29,676 bases of DNA. It comes from an uncultured archaeon (GTDB lineage Archaea > Asgardarchaeota > Lokiarchaeia > Sigyniarchaeales > SOKP01). The notes beneath the pieces were generated by a model. It did no database searches, was not told where the DNA came from, and worked only from the letters and a program-made list of their open reading frames with translations. The translations under genes and the position numbers were made by a program. Numbering within the stretch: the first letter of the stretch is position 1; the number at the start of each line of letters is the position of its first letter. Below are positions 1,995-9,695 of this stretch, piece after piece. The stretch is from contig CAYLZE010000052.1 of NCBI GenBank assembly GCA_964388035.1, positions 1 through 29,676 on the forward strand, written 5' to 3'.

Positions 1995-3941
1995 TTATAA
2001 ATACTTTAACCTCTCAAATAATTTTTTGAATCGTGAATCTTTAAGATAGAATACGGGAGGCTTTCCTAAGGGTGCTTCGACCTCCCACCAACCTTGTTTA
2101 AATTCATCCCCCGACCATAAATGAATCCAACTATCATCCGGTAAGTATACTTTCCATTTAAAAACACTTGGTTCTATTACAGGAGCAATTAATAGTTCTC
2201 TTCCTAATAGATATTGGTATTTCATATCCTTTAATTCGAGATCTCTTTCATAATGAAGAATACAAGCCCTAATTGGCGGTATTCCATCATCTTGATATTC
2301 CATTTCTAAAAGTTTAAGGTAAGGCTTTAAATTGATATGAATAGTAACCATTCTTGCCAAATGAGTTAACGTTTCCTCATCGGAATCGAATTGCCAATTA
2401 TCTTTTGGTTTGTTTCCCTCGTGAGTTCGCATGACCATGGAAAATGCAGCAATTTCTGCCCATCTCATGAAAAGTTCCCTACTTCTTTTTATTTCTCCAT
2501 GGGCACTAAATCCACCGATATCAAAATGATAATTACCAATTCCACACATTCCGCAAGAAATGCCACTTGGAATAACCGTGGGTAAACCCTCGATTGGACT
2601 CCAATTAACAATTTGGTCGCCCGGCCAATATAACATCGTGTATTTTGAAAAATGAGAATATCCCGCTCGCGTAAATATTAAATGATAATCCAGATATTTT
2701 GTTTCTTGCAGGCATTCATAGCCGATCTTAATCCAGTCAACCGCATACTTATTATGAATAAGTTTAGGGTCTTCTCCAGAATATAAAGCAGCATCCAAGG
2801 GAAGATATTCTCCATAATCCATCATCCACCCATCTAACCCGATCTTGATCATATTTTCTTTAATTATTGTTTTAATCCACTTAACCGCTGCAGGATTGGT
2901 GAGATCCAATAAGGCTGGGGCAAATGCGCCCATATTAATGTAATAGTCCTCTCCATTTTGATTTTTGACACAGTAATTCTTTTCAGATGCAATTTTATAT
3001 AAATTTCCTTCTACGTTTAAGAAAGGATTGATATACCCCAGAAATTTAACATTTCGCTTGTTTAATGATTGAATATAACGAGATAATTGAGGATATAAGC
3101 TTTTATCATAAACCCAATTATAAAAGACAAGTTTGCCATAAGGAGATAATACCTGCCCTTCCCAATCTTGACACCAAGCTCCCACTACCTTTATGCCAAA
3201 TTCCTCGGCGATGCTAAGTTTTTTATCAACAACCTCCTTTCCTCCTTGGATGCCTAAAATAATCCCATCATAAACCCAATCGGGAAATCTCGGTTGAAAA
3301 CCCAGATATTTGGTTAAATTACTTACTACGGATAACAGATTTTCATCTTTATAAATAATAATCTTTTCAGGAATACCCCAAAGATAAATTTCATGATAAT
3401 TTTGAGGTTGAAAATTACATTCGGTATATGCAGTGGTTTCGACGTGGCAATAATAACATTCTGAAGAAATAAAGGTTGGTTGGAGAAAGTAGGATTTTTC
3501 CCCCAACATTTCTTCTTGTATCCATATCTTAATTGCTTGACCACGAAGATTAAATTTAGAATACTGAGCCCCACAACCATACACGGCCTCTTCAGCATTA
3601 GCATTGATTTTCAACCAAAATCGGTTTATTTCGGGATCTTTAGCAGTTGGTATAATGATGAGTCGATTTTCTTCTATCTTAAAAGAAAGTTGAAGGGATA
3701 GATTTTGTTCGCTTAATAAAACCGTGATTTCTTTTTCACTTTCGAAGATTAGTTCATAACTTCTCAGTGGCGTACGCTCACTAATTTTATCTCTAATTCG
3801 AAATTCGCCATAGTACATTCTAACCTTATTACTACCCATTCCTAGAAAAATTAGAGGATTTTCGCGGGAGTGTATAAAAAATTCCTGGTGTTCATACTCT
3901 ATTTTAAATCCAATTTGAGTTTCCAGATATTTTAGTACCAT
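1995..3941 (-). CDS. GH31 alpha-glycosidase, YihQ (sulfoquinovosidase)-like subfamily with an altered substrate pocket
   Basis: Motifs LGIQGG, WCQDWEG, FLGYINP, nucleophile WMMDYGEYLP, acid/base WPGDQ, DIGG, MRTHEGN and QYLLGRELLIAPV. Confidence 0.9.
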   Translation of the reverse strand: MVLKYLETQIGFKIEYEHQEFFIHSRENPLIFLGMGSNKVRMYYGEFRIRDKISERTPLRSYELIFESEKEITVLLSEQNLSLQLSFKIEENRLIIIPTAKDPEINRFWLKINANAEEAVYGCGAQYSKFNLRGQAIKIWIQEEMLGEKSYFLQPTFISSECYYCHVETTAYTECNFQPQNYHEIYLWGIPEKIIIYKDENLLSVVSNLTKYLGFQPRFPDWVYDGIILGIQGGKEVVDKKLSIAEEFGIKVVGAWCQDWEGQVLSPYGKLVFYNWVYDKSLYPQLSRYIQSLNKRNVKFLGYINPFLNVEGNLYKIASEKNYCVKNQNGEDYYINMGAFAPALLDLTNPAAVKWIKTIIKENMIKIGLDGWMMDYGEYLPLDAALYSGEDPKLIHNKYAVDWIKIGYECLQETKYLDYHLIFTRAGYSHFSKYTMLYWPGDQIVNWSPIEGLPTVIPSGISCGMCGIGNYHFDIGGFSAHGEIKRSRELFMRWAEIAAFSMVMRTHEGNKPKDNWQFDSDEETLTHLARMVTIHINLKPYLKLLEMEYQDDGIPPIRACILHYERDLELKDMKYQYLLGRELLIAPVIEPSVFKWKVYLPDDSWIHLWSGDEFKQGWWEVEAPLGKPPVFYLKDSRFKKLFERLKYL

Positions 3942-4103
3942 TTTGCTTTTTAAAAAATCTTTAAATTAGTACAAATTAAGGATATCAAAAAAAAAATTAT
4001 AATATAAATAAAATTTAATGCAAAATATAACATATTTGAAATCTGCACGTTAACAGAATTGCCATTATTGTGAAAAAACAATCTACTTGGCAATTAATTA
4101 TTT

Positions 4104-4682
4104 TTACTCTAACTTTTTTGCATATTTAATTCCAAAAATGAGATTTTTGACACGATCAAATAGGATACAATTAATATAAAGAATAGGTACTAGGTACGAA
4201 ATGAGAAGAAATAAGTTAATTCCAAAAAGCATTAAGATAAAATACACGATCCAAACGGAATAGATATTAAAAAAAAACAAAATACTATACGAATAAATTT
4301 TTCTTTTTGATTCTTGTGAAAAATTTCCTCTGGCAAAAGATTCGCAGCAACTACAGCAAATTAAAGCAAGCTGTACATTATACTTTTCTTGATAATAAAG
4401 CTTTTGCATGACTGAAAACATTCGTTCTATCTTTCTTCCGCAGAAATGGCATTTATAGCACCTTAACTTTCTCGCTATTTTATCAATACGTGATTTGGAG
4501 AAATAACACTCGTCGTTTATATAATGATGGCAAGATTTGCAAGTTAATTCTACGTCTAAAAATTGTTCGTCAAAGTAACTTTTGTTGGGGTCAATAAAAT
4601 GAAAGTACTTATCATGGTCTTGGCATATTACCCTTCCCTTTTCCCCAATTTCAAAATGTGGTTCAATAGAATGTTTTGCCAT
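4104..4682 (-). CDS. Cys/His-rich putative zinc-binding protein with two C-terminal transmembrane helices
   Basis: ICQDH, CKSCHH..ECYF, CYKCHFCG and ICCSCC, followed by two hydrophobic stretches. Co-oriented with the aldolase and 43 bp downstream of it. Confidence 0.65.
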   Translation of the reverse strand: MAKHSIEPHFEIGEKGRVICQDHDKYFHFIDPNKSYFDEQFLDVELTCKSCHHYINDECYFSKSRIDKIARKLRCYKCHFCGRKIERMFSVMQKLYYQEKYNVQLALICCSCCESFARGNFSQESKRKIYSYSILFFFNIYSVWIVYFILMLFGINLFLLISYLVPILYINCILFDRVKNLIFGIKYAKKLE

Positions 4683-4725
4683 TGGTTTATCTTTTGGAAT
4701 AAAGTATTGGAATAAATTATTTTTT

Positions 4726-5337
4726 TTACCATTCAGAAAAATGCTTCTCGAGAGAATAATCGCGCTTTAAAGGTTTCCTTGTAAGCATGGTATGATACCT
4801 TAACATGGCAGATTGCTCAGCTCCCGTAACATTTTGCAACGCATCTAATAACGTATTACCTTTTGCAAACACCCCATGGCTCCTGACCACCACAATGGGA
4901 TAATTTTTAAGAACTTTTGGAACTTCTCTTGCTGCATCAGCGGGGCCTGCGGGATTATCTACTTCGATAACGGGAATCTTTTTATACATGTAGATTCCTT
5001 CGGCATCCAAGCATGTTATTTCATCCTCTATAAAGGATAAGATAACACAGAAAGGATTATGGGCATGAATCACTGCAAGGGCATCGGTATTTAAATAAAT
5101 TTGTCGATGGACTTCCGTTTCAGTACTAGAGAGCATGATCCCAGAATCCGGTCCATATAAGTCTGTTTCCACGATATCTTCGGGATCTAAATATCCTAGC
5201 ATAGCGCCTCTTCTCTTTATTAATATCTTGTTTCCACTCCTCATGGAGATATTCCCTGAATGGGAAGTATTATATCGATGATCTGTCAATACTTTTCCCG
5301 TTATTTTGAATTCTCTAAAAGTTGCCTCATCAATCAT
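4726..5337 (-). CDS. Class II (Zn) aldolase/adducin family, FucA-like
   Basis: SGNIS phosphate loop, SSTE catalytic Glu, VIHAH and RSHG Zn ligands. At 203 aa it is FucA-sized and shorter than RhaD. Confidence 0.88.
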   Translation of the reverse strand: MIDEATFREFKITGKVLTDHRYNTSHSGNISMRSGNKILIKRRGAMLGYLDPEDIVETDLYGPDSGIMLSSTETEVHRQIYLNTDALAVIHAHNPFCVILSFIEDEITCLDAEGIYMYKKIPVIEVDNPAGPADAAREVPKVLKNYPIVVVRSHGVFAKGNTLLDALQNVTGAEQSAMLRYHTMLTRKPLKRDYSLEKHFSEW

Positions 5338-5367
5338 ATTTTTTCACTTTTGTGCTTTTTTAACATG

Positions 5368-7176
5368 TCAATTCATTAATTTTTCAAGTCCTAATCTATG
5401 TAATGTTTTGTCTAACGGGATTCCTTCTTCATCCCATCCTCTCACGAGATAATACTCTTCTAATAATTCTCCAAGTGGAACTGTTTGATTTTTGGAAGGA
5501 CCTTCATCTAAGGGCGTTTTTAAGAATCTCATTGGTAAGATATCATCTTTTTTACCAAATCCTTCCCTTAAATTAAATATTCTCTCCAAATTAAAGATTC
5601 TCTCTCCAATTGTCACTAAATCAGTAATAGAAATTTTTTTATTTAAAATTGTGCTTAAAAATCTCACTTGATATTCAAAGCCCAAGGCATAGCCTACAAA
5701 CTTACATACAATCAGAGAATCTTCCACGGCGCTCTGATTTTGTTTTAATGCCAGTAAATCTCCCTTTCCTCGGATAGAGAAGCGATCTATCTTTTTTGGA
5801 ACACCCAAAATTTCCGAAGCAGCTAAAAATCCTGTTAGATGACACGCACCTCTATTACTCACAGCATAATTCAAGGCATGACCAACCGCCCCTCGTGGAT
5901 CATAAGCAGGTAATTCCAGTCCTTTGACTTGCATTGCGCATTCGGGAGCGCCAAATTTAGTAGCTAGTCTTAAAGAACCTTCTGCTAATTCTTTTCCAAG
6001 ATTCTCTCGGAATGCTATTTCTTTTATAATTTTGCATAATTGTCCACCGTTTCCAAATTTGAATTTATGATCGTCCAATATTTCTTTTTGCTCTAGTTCC
6101 ATTGCACATGCTATGGTAGATCCTGCTGAAATTGTATCCAATCCATATTCATTGCAATAATAATTAGCATGTGTAATCTCTTTTAAGTTAAAAGTACCTG
6201 TTAAGGGACCTAATGCCCATAACGATTCATATTCCGGTCCTTTTCCTTGCATCTCACCCGTATTAGTTAATCTACCGCATCTTATGACACAATTAAAGCA
6301 TCCTTCATCTTTTACTAAATACTTTGCCCTTAACTCCTCTCCACTCACGGCATCTATTTTAGTAGAGTTTGTATAAGCTTCTTGAAAATTATTTATTGGA
6401 AACATGCCAAATTGATTAATTACTTTTACCAAGGCGGCTGTTCCAAATAAGGCGAGACCTTGAGAAGTGATAGGCACCACCCTGATTTTATCCAGCGCCA
6501 GTAAATTTAGCCTTTTTAAAGATTCCTTATCTTCAACGTTAAATTGTTTTTTTCCACTTTTAACCACAATTGCTTTAAGATTTTTGGACCCCATTACGGC
6601 GCCTACCCCCCCTCTCCCAAAGGCACGATGAGCTTGATTCATGATCGAGGCAATTTTCACTAAGTTTTCGCCAGCAGGACCAATACATAAAACTTTACAA
6701 TTTTTTCCTTCTACATCTTTTAATTTCTCAACTGTATCTGTTGTTTTCAATCCCCATAAGAAATTTGCGTCCTTGATTTGAACATTGTTCTCATCATTTA
6801 TCACGATATATCCCTTACTATCATTTTTCAATTTGCCTGTTATAAATAAGGCATCATAACCGCATTTTTTGAAAAATGGCCCCCAAAAACCTCCAGAATT
6901 GGAAGGGAAAATAGTATTCGTAAGCGGGGATTTAGTCACCAGAGAAAACCTACCACTCGTAGGTACTGTTGTCCCCGTCAAGGGTCCTACTGAAAAAATT
7001 AAAGGATTTTCCGGGGAAAGTGGGTCAATTCCTTTTTTTAAGGTTTCCGAGAGAAGTTTAACACCAAGACCTCTTCCTCCTAGATAATTCTCTAATACTT
7101 CTTCTTTAAGCTCGATTTTTTTTATCTTTTCATACGTTAAATTAACTTCTAAAAGACAATTATTCATTCCATTCAT
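5368..7176 (-). CDS. aor: Tungsten aldehyde:ferredoxin oxidoreductase (AOR family)
   Basis: GGRGLG, KSPLT, SNSGG, IGPAGE, GRGGVGAVMGSKNLKAI, 4Fe-4S motif CFNCVIRC, EYE, GLDTIS, VKGLELPAYDPR, RGACH and DSLIVC. Confidence 0.95.
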   Translation of the reverse strand: MNGMNNCLLEVNLTYEKIKKIELKEEVLENYLGGRGLGVKLLSETLKKGIDPLSPENPLIFSVGPLTGTTVPTSGRFSLVTKSPLTNTIFPSNSGGFWGPFFKKCGYDALFITGKLKNDSKGYIVINDENNVQIKDANFLWGLKTTDTVEKLKDVEGKNCKVLCIGPAGENLVKIASIMNQAHRAFGRGGVGAVMGSKNLKAIVVKSGKKQFNVEDKESLKRLNLLALDKIRVVPITSQGLALFGTAALVKVINQFGMFPINNFQEAYTNSTKIDAVSGEELRAKYLVKDEGCFNCVIRCGRLTNTGEMQGKGPEYESLWALGPLTGTFNLKEITHANYYCNEYGLDTISAGSTIACAMELEQKEILDDHKFKFGNGGQLCKIIKEIAFRENLGKELAEGSLRLATKFGAPECAMQVKGLELPAYDPRGAVGHALNYAVSNRGACHLTGFLAASEILGVPKKIDRFSIRGKGDLLALKQNQSAVEDSLIVCKFVGYALGFEYQVRFLSTILNKKISITDLVTIGERIFNLERIFNLREGFGKKDDILPMRFLKTPLDEGPSKNQTVPLGELLEEYYLVRGWDEEGIPLDKTLHRLGLEKLMN

Positions 7177-7250
7177 AATATTTTTTTAAACTTTATTTTA
7201 ATTCATAAAATAGATTAGAAAGCTGTGTTTCTTAACGTCTTTATATTTAT

Positions 7251-7263
7251 AATTGTTCCAATA
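7251..7263. promoter_or_regulatory. Candidate operator box upstream of aor
   Basis: AATTG-TTC-CAATA, one mismatch to AATTG-N3-CAATT, abutting a minus-strand TATA-like TTATAAATATAAA. Confidence 0.45.
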
Positions 7264-7285
7264 AAAAATTGAAAATAAGGTTTCA

Positions 7286-8548
7286 TTATCGTTTAAATAA
7301 CACTTCTTTTTCATAATCCTCAATCCTTTTCATCCAGTCGAAATCAAGCGGGACATCGTGTTTATTACAATAATAATTCCAAATAGCACCAAACGGTAGT
7401 GCTTTTATATCTTCAAGCAGTGCCAAGCGATGTGTATAATCCCCAATCCCTTCATATTCTTTTAATTGCTCCCATGGTTGTAATAATGCGAGAAGTAGGG
7501 CTTTCAATATGGCTCTTAATCCAATTACATAAGCCGATATTCTGTTAATAGACGCATCAAACCAATCCGTGCATAAATAAGTCTTTTCTCTTTCAGAACA
7601 TTTTACAATTTCTTGAGCAAGACTAATAAGATCATCATTCAAGATAGCAACATGATCGCTATCCCATCTCACCCCTCTACTCAAATGAAATACAATGCCC
7701 TCTATAAAAGGTAAAATAGCAGAAATCTTATCTGCCACGGATTCCGTCGGATGATAATGTCCGGTGTCTAATGTTAGTAATGTTCTATTTGAAATAGCAT
7801 AACTTAAGTAAAAATCATGACTTCCTACTACGAAAGATTCACTACCTATTCCAAATAACTTTCCCTCAAGAGAGTCTCTCATGAAGGATTTGGGATACTT
7901 TATTGCTAGAATTTCATCTAGAGAATCCTTTAGACGTAAACGGAATCCTCTTCTATCGATGGGAATATCTTTCATGCCATCGGGAATCCATATATTATGA
8001 ATGCAAGTATCATTTAATTGTTTGCCGATTTCAGCGCTAATTTCTCGACATCTCTTTACGTGCTCGATCCAGAATTCTCTAATATTCTGTGATTTATGGC
8101 TAAGCGTAAATCCCTCGTTAGCTTTAGGATGAGAAAATAAAGTGGGATTAAAATCTAGTTTGACACCCTTTTTTTTAGCCCAATCTATCCATCCCTGAAA
8201 ATGGTTGATCGAGATTTGATTTCTATCTACTTTTTTCCCGCCAAACTCTCCATATATCGCATGTAAATTAATTCGATGAATACCAGGAATTAAAGAAAGA
8301 ATTTCTTCAAAATCTTGTCTTAATTCAGATACAGTTCTTGCTCTTCCGGGATAATCTCCTGTAACTTGAATTCCGCCGCCACTTAATTCAGCATTAGGAC
8401 TTTCAAATCCACTCACATCATCCCCTTGCCAACAGTGGATTGAAAGATTAAAGGTTTCTAATTTCTCCAAAGCTATTTGTACGTCAACCCCAATATCTTG
8501 ATAATTATCCTTGGCGATACTATAAGACTTCTCAATCTCTTCTATCAT
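7286..8548 (-). CDS. rhaA: L-rhamnose isomerase (E. coli/Bacillus type)
   Basis: SIHCWQGDDVSGFE, NLHAIY, DFNPTLFSHP, NIWIPDG, EGKLFGIGSES, DTGHYHPTE, RWDSDH and FDASINR. Confidence 0.97.
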   Translation of the reverse strand: MIEEIEKSYSIAKDNYQDIGVDVQIALEKLETFNLSIHCWQGDDVSGFESPNAELSGGGIQVTGDYPGRARTVSELRQDFEEILSLIPGIHRINLHAIYGEFGGKKVDRNQISINHFQGWIDWAKKKGVKLDFNPTLFSHPKANEGFTLSHKSQNIREFWIEHVKRCREISAEIGKQLNDTCIHNIWIPDGMKDIPIDRRGFRLRLKDSLDEILAIKYPKSFMRDSLEGKLFGIGSESFVVGSHDFYLSYAISNRTLLTLDTGHYHPTESVADKISAILPFIEGIVFHLSRGVRWDSDHVAILNDDLISLAQEIVKCSEREKTYLCTDWFDASINRISAYVIGLRAILKALLLALLQPWEQLKEYEGIGDYTHRLALLEDIKALPFGAIWNYYCNKHDVPLDFDWMKRIEDYEKEVLFKR

Positions 8549-8615
8549 TTTTTAAACCTATAAAAGATTAAGTCAATATTGATAATAAAATGTTTTAATG
8601 GAAAAGTAATTAAAA

Positions 8616-8628
8616 AATTGAAACAATT
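8616..8628. promoter_or_regulatory. Candidate operator box upstream of rhaA
   Basis: Palindrome with perfectly matched arms, AATTG-AAA-CAATT, in the rhaA/deoR divergent region. Confidence 0.55.
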
Positions 8629-8853
8629 ATTTAAACAATCTGTTATATTTTGTTATATTCTTGAAATCTATAAAAGTTTTACTTTTTATGAAAATTTGTT
8701 AAATAGTCGCAAAATAGCTACATTTAAAATTCAACTAACCTACTTCATATTCAAGTATTAAATTCACTTTCTTATTTACATTTATGAAGATTATAATGAA
8801 AAGTGTAAAGAATTTAGAAAAACTTATTTTAAATGTAACACATTTTTTTTTAC

Positions 8854-8868
8854 AAATTGATACAATTT
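8854..8868. promoter_or_regulatory. Candidate operator box upstream of the DeoR gene (possible autoregulation)
   Basis: AAATTG-ATA-CAATTT immediately upstream of the TATA-like TATATAAA (8871-8878). Confidence 0.55.
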
Positions 8869-8912
8869 CATATATAAATTCTTATTGAATTTACATTTCT
8901 TTTTTATATCAC

Positions 8913-9695
8913 ATGTTAGCTCGGGAGAGACGGCAACTAATAAGTGAAGTCGTTAAAAATCAGAATTCCGTATCCATTGAGGAACTTAGCTCCAAATTTA
9001 ACGTTTCACGCATGACTATTTGGCGAGATTTAAAGATTCTAGAAGAAAGGGGAATTCTCGTAAAAGTTCATGGAGGAGCAATGAGAATTGATAAGTTAGA
9101 TCCTCAAGAAAATGAATTTGAAATTAGAAAAAAGTCATCCTCAAAAGAAAAGCAAGAAATTGCCAAACATGCTGCCAATAATCATATAAAAAATGGGGAA
9201 ATTTTGTTCTTAGATGGAGGGAGCACGGTAATAGAATTAATTCCATATCTTAAAGAGAAAGAGGTTACCATTTTAACTAATGGTCTTAACACTTTAGTAT
9301 ACGCCTCAAAATTTCTACCCGAACTTAATGTTATTGGATGCGGAGGAATCCTAAGAAAACCCTCTTTCACATTTGTTGGTCCGGAAGCAGAAGAGTTTTT
9401 TAATCATTATAAAGCTGATACTGCATTTATAAGTGGCACCGGAATAACTTTGGAAGATGGAATTACGGATCCCCATCCTTTAGAAATGCAAATCAAAAAA
9501 ATTATGTGCCAAAATGCTAATAGAATAATTGCTTTATTAGATACGAGTAAATTCTTTAAACGTTCATTATCTACTCTCCTCCATATTAAGGATATTGACA
9601 TTCTTATAACTAATGAACCAAATTCAATTCAAGAAAAAAATTTTATCACGGATATTAGAGGATTAGGAGTAAAAGTGGAAGTAATACACTCCTAA
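8913..9695 (+). CDS. DeoR/GlpR-family transcriptional regulator (probable rhamnose regulator)
   Basis: HTH ELSSKFNVSRMTIWRDLKILEERG..KVHGGA and sensor domain LFLDGGST, LTNGL, DTSKF. Lies between rhaA and rhaB, divergent from rhaA. Confidence 0.95.
   Translation: MLARERRQLISEVVKNQNSVSIEELSSKFNVSRMTIWRDLKILEERGILVKVHGGAMRIDKLDPQENEFEIRKKSSSKEKQEIAKHAANNHIKNGEILFLDGGSTVIELIPYLKEKEVTILTNGLNTLVYASKFLPELNVIGCGGILRKPSFTFVGPEAEEFFNHYKADTAFISGTGITLEDGITDPHPLEMQIKKIMCQNANRIIALLDTSKFFKRSLSTLLHIKDIDILITNEPNSIQEKNFITDIRGLGVKVEVIHS

Follow-up and report, generated by a model that had tools for sequence, protein, structure and literature searches.

What does an enzyme built like a sulfoquinovosidase (SQase) do once the residues that hold the sulfonate group have all been replaced, and does its place behind a set of rhamnose genes bear on the answer? 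The question is raised by a glycoside hydrolase family 31 (GH31) gene in a 29,676-nt stretch of DNA, here called the window, from an uncultured archaeon (Asgardarchaeota; Lokiarchaeia; Sigyniarchaeales; SOKP01; contig CAYLZE010000052.1 of assembly GCA_964388035.1). The window belongs to contig C52 of a 5.47-Mb genome (G000) that has 33% GC and is 96.7% complete. An earlier note, made from the sequence, had proposed a catalytically intact YihQ-like enzyme with a neutral C6 pocket, possibly acting on 6-deoxy sugars and belonging to a clade linked to rhamnose genes; as a whole, this interpretation is partly supported. We think it probable that the protein, P0001, would be no longer an SQase but a cytoplasmic alpha-glycosidase of the retaining type that is active on a neutral substrate. 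The gene is the following.

1995..3941, minus strand: GH31 gene of the YihQ subfamily (GH31_13), 648 aa (P0001), based on its open reading frame (ORF) and translation, Pfam, NCBIfam PRK10426 and an AF2 model

P0001 is full length and belongs to the YihQ/sulfoquinovosidase subfamily of GH31. Its ORF is the only long one at these positions, and inspection revealed no obvious N-terminal signal peptide. The Pfam models PF01055 (barrel) and PF21365 (C-terminal domain) matched, and PF13802 (N-terminal) matched weakly, just under its cut-off. The YihQ-type equivalog model NCBIfam PRK10426 gave 739.5 bits (cut-off 553), and the YicI alpha-xylosidase equivalog model stayed far below its threshold (218 versus 606). 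Searching PDB sequences with phmmer, we found four solved SQases as best matches (E 1e-187 to 1e-146), with end-to-end alignments to BmSQase 8r56 (E 1e-187) and E. coli YihQ 5aed (E 6e-178). The AF2 model, built with 82 homologues, had a mean pLDDT of 96.4. Superposition of a structure model, which had been suggested as a check, gave the SQase fold: the top fold matches were all GH31, the best were four solved SQases (TM score 0.95-0.98, root-mean-square deviation 1.4-2.0 Å), and the next GH31 structures reached a TM score of only ~0.75. The N-terminal beta-sandwich, (beta/alpha)8 barrel and C-terminal beta domain of GH31 are all present, and P0001 is nested within the YihQ-like tree, which places it in subfamily 13, the CAZy number given to YihQ-type enzymes in PMC12780224. 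The characterized enzymes of this subfamily are all SQases (PMC12780224).

We then compared the active site with that of E. coli YihQ, in which Q288 recognizes hydroxyls, R301, W304 and Y508 bind the sulfonate, D405 and D472 carry out catalysis and H537 takes part in binding (bioRxiv 10.64898/2026.02.11.705467); SQases are marked by a Q/E-RWY motif (PMC12780224). Residue equivalences were taken from a HMMER alignment to YihQ (5aed), which is ungapped near the key sites, and codons were verified by translation. The elements in question, all on the minus strand, are listed below.

2421..2423, minus strand: codon of H507 (YihQ H537), the substrate-binding His; column invariant in an 82-sequence alignment
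2508..2510, minus strand: codon of F478, replacing Y508, the water-mediated sulfonate ligand; HMMER alignment and translation
2616..2618, minus strand: codon of D442 (YihQ D472), the general acid/base, in WPGDQ; column invariant in the 82-sequence alignment
2817..2819, minus strand: codon of D375 (YihQ D405), the catalytic nucleophile, in WMMDYGE; column invariant in the 82-sequence alignment
3120..3131, minus strand: codons of L271-V272-F273-Y274, replacing R301 and W304 of YihQ; HMMER alignment and translation
3168..3248, minus strand: stretch bounded by the codons of Q232 (3246-3248) and Q258 (3168-3170), the retained counterparts of Q262 and Q288 in YihQ; alignment and translation
3474..3524, minus strand: shortened N-domain loop, residues 140-156 (WIQEEMLGEKSYFLQPT); alignment and mapping to SmoI

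The residues that handle the sugar ring and the reaction are all in place. Q262, Q288, D405, D472 and H537 of YihQ correspond to Q232, Q258, D375, D442 and H507, which provides both the Gln/Gln pair (Lys/Glu in some SQases) expected at 262/288 and the catalytic Asp pair of GH31. The spacings of 26, 67 and 65 residues between these motifs, on which the YihQ-like assignment had first been based, are exact in the alignment. The residues for a gluco-configured ring (Q232, Q258, D259 and H507) are retained and every invariant family residue is present; with the Asp pair, the Gln pair and the His kept, the enzyme appears catalytically intact, as had been claimed.

The sulfonate site, in contrast to that of the solved SQases, is replaced throughout. 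GKRVMWNW of YihQ reads GKLVFYNW in P0001 and DIGGY reads DIGGF, so that Leu271 takes the place of Arg301, the salt-bridge partner of the sulfonate, Tyr274 that of Trp304, whose indole NH binds the sulfonate, and Phe478 that of Tyr508, which binds it via water; the HMMER alignment and translation thus confirm the three exchanges that had been read from the sequence. They support a C6 pocket that would no longer carry a positive charge and would keep only one of three hydrogen-bond donors, in agreement with the neutral pocket proposed before. The side chains of Leu and Tyr, smaller than those of Arg and Trp, probably make this pocket roomier. The earlier note had also considered that an adjacent Lys might occupy the sulfonate site. 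We rejected Lys270 as a stand-in for Arg301 because canonical SQases have the same Lys (GKR in E. coli), and it is therefore not a compensating gain.

A second difference lies in the N-terminal domain. In the loop after its EQGVGR motif, P0001 has a 21-residue gap relative to YihQ (WIQEEMLGEKSYF), close to the ~20 residues estimated earlier, which leaves a loop of 17 residues versus 38 in canonical SQases. The loop keeps E143, carries a clade-specific K149 and is the least confident block of the AF2 model (pLDDT 77). The glycerol aglycone of SmoI of A. tumefaciens is in contact with Glu135 and Arg438 (PMC8795539); the equivalent residues, E143 and R425, are both retained in P0001, as mapped through P0156, a homologue of the Lys/Glu type with residue numbers offset by 6-7. 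Overall, P0001 is 37-43% identical to the solved SQases (YihQ; BmSQase, 8R56; E. rectale SftG, 6PNR; SmoI, 5OHS/7OFX), with which it shares the three-domain fold, both Asp, the Gln pair, the His, the aglycone-contacting Glu and Arg and a cytoplasmic location. It differs from them in the Arg/Trp/Tyr to Leu/Tyr/Phe exchange, the 21 missing loop residues, an Ala in place of the Glu of GCGEQ, and a gene position away from sulfoglycolysis genes.

From the retention of ring, catalytic and aglycone residues around an uncharged C6 pocket we conclude that P0001 most likely acts, as a retaining alpha-glycosidase, on a small neutral glycoside. Such an enzyme would have descended from sulfoquinovosidases with loss of sulfonate recognition. 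It would work by two-Asp double displacement, in which D375 would be the nucleophile and D442 the acid/base, and Leu271, Tyr274 and Phe478 would line the uncharged pocket. The likely substrate would be a neutral alpha-D-glycoside that is small and imported, such as a polyol or oligosaccharide carrying an alpha-glucosyl or 6-deoxy-glucosyl group. GH31 alpha-glucosidases and alpha-xylosidases such as E. coli YicI (GH31_3) resemble P0001 in family, mechanism and the proposed neutral kind of substrate, but are only ~20% identical to it (TM score 0.75). A neutral specificity of P0001 would have arisen independently, from within the SQase subfamily.

The three exchanges are not confined to one protein. 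A search of 5.8 billion proteins yielded only four further clusters with the L-Y-F (LYF) signature, P0002 to P0005, whose members add P0272 (NCBI TXT60150.1, from a Promethearchaeota metagenome-assembled genome) and P0274. The seven full-length LYF proteins (P0001 and six metagenome proteins) are 61-77% identical among themselves, with two pairs near-identical, and all share GKLVFYNW, DIGGF, W(I/V)QEEMLGEKSYF and the catalytic motifs; K149 is invariant. In 174 other family members, the W304 column holds Trp in 99% and never Tyr, and among ~180 sequences Leu in the R301 column and Tyr in the W304 column occur in the LYF proteins only. Phe in the Y508 column is also common among other Asgard paralogues. 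Maximum-likelihood analysis of 190 sequences grouped the LYF proteins with one truncated genomic copy in a single clade (support 1.0), whose sister is a short-loop N-W-F clade (support 0.73). Identical motifs at 61-77% identity, together with the clade support of 1.0, argue for selection on a defined new pocket; to judge from these comparisons, the LYF changes are more than noise or chance.

The clade is nevertheless rare. A full-length LYF gene was present in only one of the 161 genomes of the class, the source genome itself, and no further one was found in 135 genomes of the family, 161 of the class or 400 sampled from the phylum. Scanning general genome and metagenome contig collections with P0001 recovered distant bacterial relatives only. 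The genome in which a truncated copy could be placed (G097) belongs to another genus of the same family. There, the ends of contigs C80 and C180 overlap by ~54 nt, and the joined order is a Q-W-Y-type YihQ paralogue, a 157-aa fragment of an MFS_2 (GPH) transporter and the LYF-type gene from residue 344 only (L070:10360-10885 and L032:7376-8290). From this arrangement we conclude that a deletion took part of the transporter gene together with the N-terminal half of the enzyme. The same LYF remnant is also called, with 287 aa, in two other assemblies, so that the copies in G097 and in these two consist of the C-terminal 287-305 residues.

Rarity and remnants, the one in G097 beside a broken transporter gene, are what would be expected of a leftover of the Asgard radiation, a paralogue that is inactive or in decay. 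In the case of P0001 we consider this barely credible: its ORF is full length and holds every invariant family residue, the motifs are identical among members of only 61-77% identity, the AF2 model is of very high confidence, and comparison of its gene with the G097 fragment gave a non-synonymous divergence (dN) of 0.21 with saturated synonymous divergence (dS).

One of the two further remnant assemblies has its copy on a contig equal in size to that of the Q-W-Y paralogue P0055. The full-length P0272 appears to share a 72.9-kb contig with the Q-W-Y paralogue P0024, on the sole basis that both contigs measure 72,923 bp, and the sister N-W-F type in genome G082 is arranged as GH31-MFS_2-GH31. 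The older home of the LYF clade thus looks like a module in which two YihQ-like paralogues are placed around a GPH sugar transporter, and this appears to have been the original setting of the clade. In the source genome, ~90 tblastn matches to one GPH (MFS_2) glycoside transporter were scattered across many contigs. We take them to represent many GPH transporter genes that would be available for import, which points to an importer repertoire unusually large for an archaeon.

The LYF clade occupies a terminal position in a radiation that is, by source names, almost confined to Asgard archaea. The near relatives of P0001 are all Asgard (Loki-type and others) and are annotated as 'alpha-glucosidase' or 'sulfoquinovosidase', the kind of mis-annotation that had been anticipated. 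Across the radiation the N-domain loop becomes shorter in steps (38, 27, 20 and finally 15 or 17 residues), and Gln frequently replaces Arg301. The best 120 matches included 43 R-W-F, ~42 Q-W-Y and ~14 Q-W-F pockets and only 10 of the canonical R-W-Y type. The RWF, QWY, QWF and NWF paralogues, cytoplasmic GH31_13 enzymes 47-56% identical to P0001, commonly share its losses of Arg301 and Tyr508, and the NWF type is also very short-looped; all of them, however, keep Trp304, whereas Tyr at this position and a hydrophobic residue at 301 are each found in the LYF clade only. Judged by these motifs, the L-Y-F pocket, with all three residues replaced, goes furthest, pockets such as Q-W-F being altered only in part. 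A full-text literature search on sulfoquinovose use by Asgard archaea and on GH31 SQase variants returned no description of these archaeal variants. One protein of the representative library, P0155 (4269 aa), matches P0001 in eight separate stretches and is possibly a giant multi-GH31 protein.

Most Asgard paralogues differ from the P0001 gene in their neighbours as well. In 17 of 22 related loci (L034, L035, L054-L073) the GH31 gene directly follows a ~430-aa gene with a weak FucI-family signature, and transaldolase is present in 11 of the 22. An SqvD isomerase and an SqvA transaldolase belong to the bacterial sulfo-transaldolase (sulfo-TAL) pathway as described in PMC9594981, and the gene pair of the Asgard loci matches this description. 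Sulfatase, GH4, GH2 and amidohydrolase genes also recur near the Asgard YihQ-like loci. The P0001 gene does not follow an SqvD-like gene, and no sulfoglycolysis genes lie beside it, its neighbours being rhamnose-type.

Using an SqvD-like neighbour from the related loci as query, we found the isomerase elsewhere in the source genome. Contig C152 (L074:269-8955) carries transaldolase, GH3, response regulator and SqvD/FucI-like isomerase genes in the same order as in the congeneric genome G137, and the isomerase and transaldolase are 70% and 81% identical to those of G137. Where G137 has its GH31 gene, C152 has a 148-aa ORF and an esterase gene (BD-FAE), with GH4 next. PF07221 (YihS-type isomerase) gave only weak, irrelevant matches in the source genome, in a search that did not recover the E. 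coli control either.

Several points weigh against a neutral substrate. We infer the geometry of the C6 pocket from sequence alone; the hydroxyl of Tyr274 could still hydrogen-bond a sulfonate; and K149, in the remodelled, lower-confidence loop near the active site, could provide a positive charge. The LYF copy has decayed in one lineage (G097), and P0001 could serve the SqvD-like/transaldolase pathway, whose usual GH31 partner is missing on C152. P0001 might on these grounds still be an SQase, or act on the substrate of the other Asgard YihQ-like enzymes, with sulfonate recognition rebuilt from the Tyr274 hydroxyl and a basic residue such as K149, and might feed the C152 isomerase and transaldolase in trans. 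That its gene is the sole YihQ-like gene of a 96.7% complete genome, the second GH31 on C35 being distant, speaks for this explanation, as do the occupied GH31 slot on C152, the close association of GH31 with the SqvD-like gene in the related loci and the invariance of K149. We still regard it as unlikely. All three sulfonate ligands are replaced by residues incapable of a salt bridge, and single R301 substitutions reportedly abolished YihQ activity. Moreover, the clade of P0001 is distinct from the paralogue lost at C152 (52% identity), and elsewhere the LYF type accompanies, rather than replaces, an Arg- or Gln-type paralogue.

For a neutral alpha-glycosidase, the wider proposal would be that the LYF clade represents the first non-SQase activity in GH31_13, directed for example at alpha-glucosyl- or alpha-quinovosyl-glycerol-type compounds and evolved by stripping the sulfonate triad, as one end point of an undescribed Asgard radiation of paired YihQ-like enzymes around GPH transporters; we see the chances of this as evenly balanced. 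The clade would then be a natural experiment in which a charged-sugar pocket was converted to a neutral one. Identification of the substrate would add a new GH31 activity and could point to a glycoside food of sediment Asgard archaea. For surveys of sulfur-sugar cycling, the implication is that counts of homologues by similarity can be wrong in these archaea, and the RWF, QWY, QWF, NWF and LYF types raise the question of whether Asgard 'sulfo-transaldolase' clusters really act on sulfoquinovose.

We finally examined the rhamnose-type operon behind which the P0001 gene lies.

3942..4103, minus strand: AT-rich spacer of 162 bp, 5' of the GH31 gene, with T6 and T10 runs and a TATA-like stretch; sequence read directly
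4104..11349, minus strand except deoR (plus): rhamnose-type operon; NCBIfam, Pfam
4104-4682, minus strand: gene for a 192-aa Cys-rich membrane protein, function unassigned
4726-5337, minus strand: class II aldolase (small)
5368-7176, minus strand: aldehyde:ferredoxin oxidoreductase (AOR)
7286-8548, minus strand: rhaA, above the L-rhamnose isomerase equivalog cut-off
8913-9695, plus strand: deoR, between rhaA and rhaB
9847-11349, minus strand: rhaB

The GH31 gene lies on the same strand as the operon, 162 bp after its last gene, and its stop codon is 21 bp from that of a convergent HAD-like gene. Because of the T6 and T10 runs and the TATA-like stretch in the spacer, it may have its own promoter. 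Its GC and GC3 match those of its neighbours and therefore give no sign of recent foreign origin. The deoxyhexose neighbourhood that the earlier note had described was found as such, with rhaB, deoR, rhaA, AOR and aldolase genes; a link to it across the clade was not. In the congener G137, the rhaB-rhaA-AOR-aldolase-unknown order is kept at 50-88% protein identity and is directly followed by the same convergent HAD-like gene, with neither GH31 nor deoR at this syntenic operon. The GH31 gene was thus either added at the operon tail here or lost in the congener. No GH31 gene was among the ORFs of the G082 rhaA locus, and RhaA was not found in G097, a 96% complete genome that holds a LYF copy. 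The contexts in G137, G097 and around P0272 therefore show that the LYF clade is not linked to rha genes in general: of the proposed rha-linked LYF clade, the clade stands and the linkage falls. Nor, given G137, G082 and G097, is the GH31 gene a conserved member of an L-rhamnose operon. Its placement at the operon tail may allow co-expression in this genome, as a coupling that is not conserved.

This bears on the substrate suggested by the earlier note. A 6-deoxy (quinovoside) substrate is possible but unsupported, and we judge it rather improbable that P0001 would be functionally tied to the deoxyhexose genes next to it, as an alpha-D-quinovosidase or another 6-deoxyhexosidase, with breakdown ending in lactaldehyde that AOR would oxidize. 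A methyl group would suit the uncharged pocket, the gene follows the rhaB-rhaA-AOR-aldolase operon on the same strand, and 6-deoxyglucose degraded by a transaldolase route would presumably also yield lactaldehyde. Yet the operon of G137 manages without GH31, G097 combines a LYF copy with no detectable RhaA, and the other LYF copies lie beside YihQ paralogues and a GPH transporter. In addition, with Leu and Tyr in place of the larger Arg and Trp, the pocket shows no obvious narrowing that would fit a methyl group. The RhaA of this operon matches the standard L-rhamnose isomerase equivalog. Isomerases of this class require the 2R,3R configuration, which D-quinovose lacks, its C3 configuration being wrong for them, and released D-quinovose would therefore not enter the pathway of the rha operon.

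The operon-tail position could instead be explained if P0001 were an alpha-D-glycosyl-L-rhamnose hydrolase that freed L-rhamnose from an imported disaccharide, with the shortened loop opening the +1 site to a sugar as aglycone. This would account for GH31 stereochemistry beside L-rhamnose genes and for the 21 residues cut from the loop next to the aglycone-contacting Glu. It would leave the change of the C6 pocket unexplained, synteny with the rha genes is not conserved, and a GH78 rhamnosidase is already encoded on another contig of the source genome; we hold this to be highly improbable.

Some features of the operon are of interest beyond the GH31 gene. The 192-aa protein (4104-4682) contains several CxxC pairs and is predicted to end in two membrane helices at its C-terminus; it had no match in Pfam or the ESM Atlas, and a 50% identical counterpart occupies the same place in G137. 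AOR and the class II aldolase, as part of the rhamnose gene set, probably serve the conversion of lactaldehyde to lactate. The deoR slot between rhaA and rhaB is a 267-bp gap in G137, which makes deoR a second insertion in the operon here.

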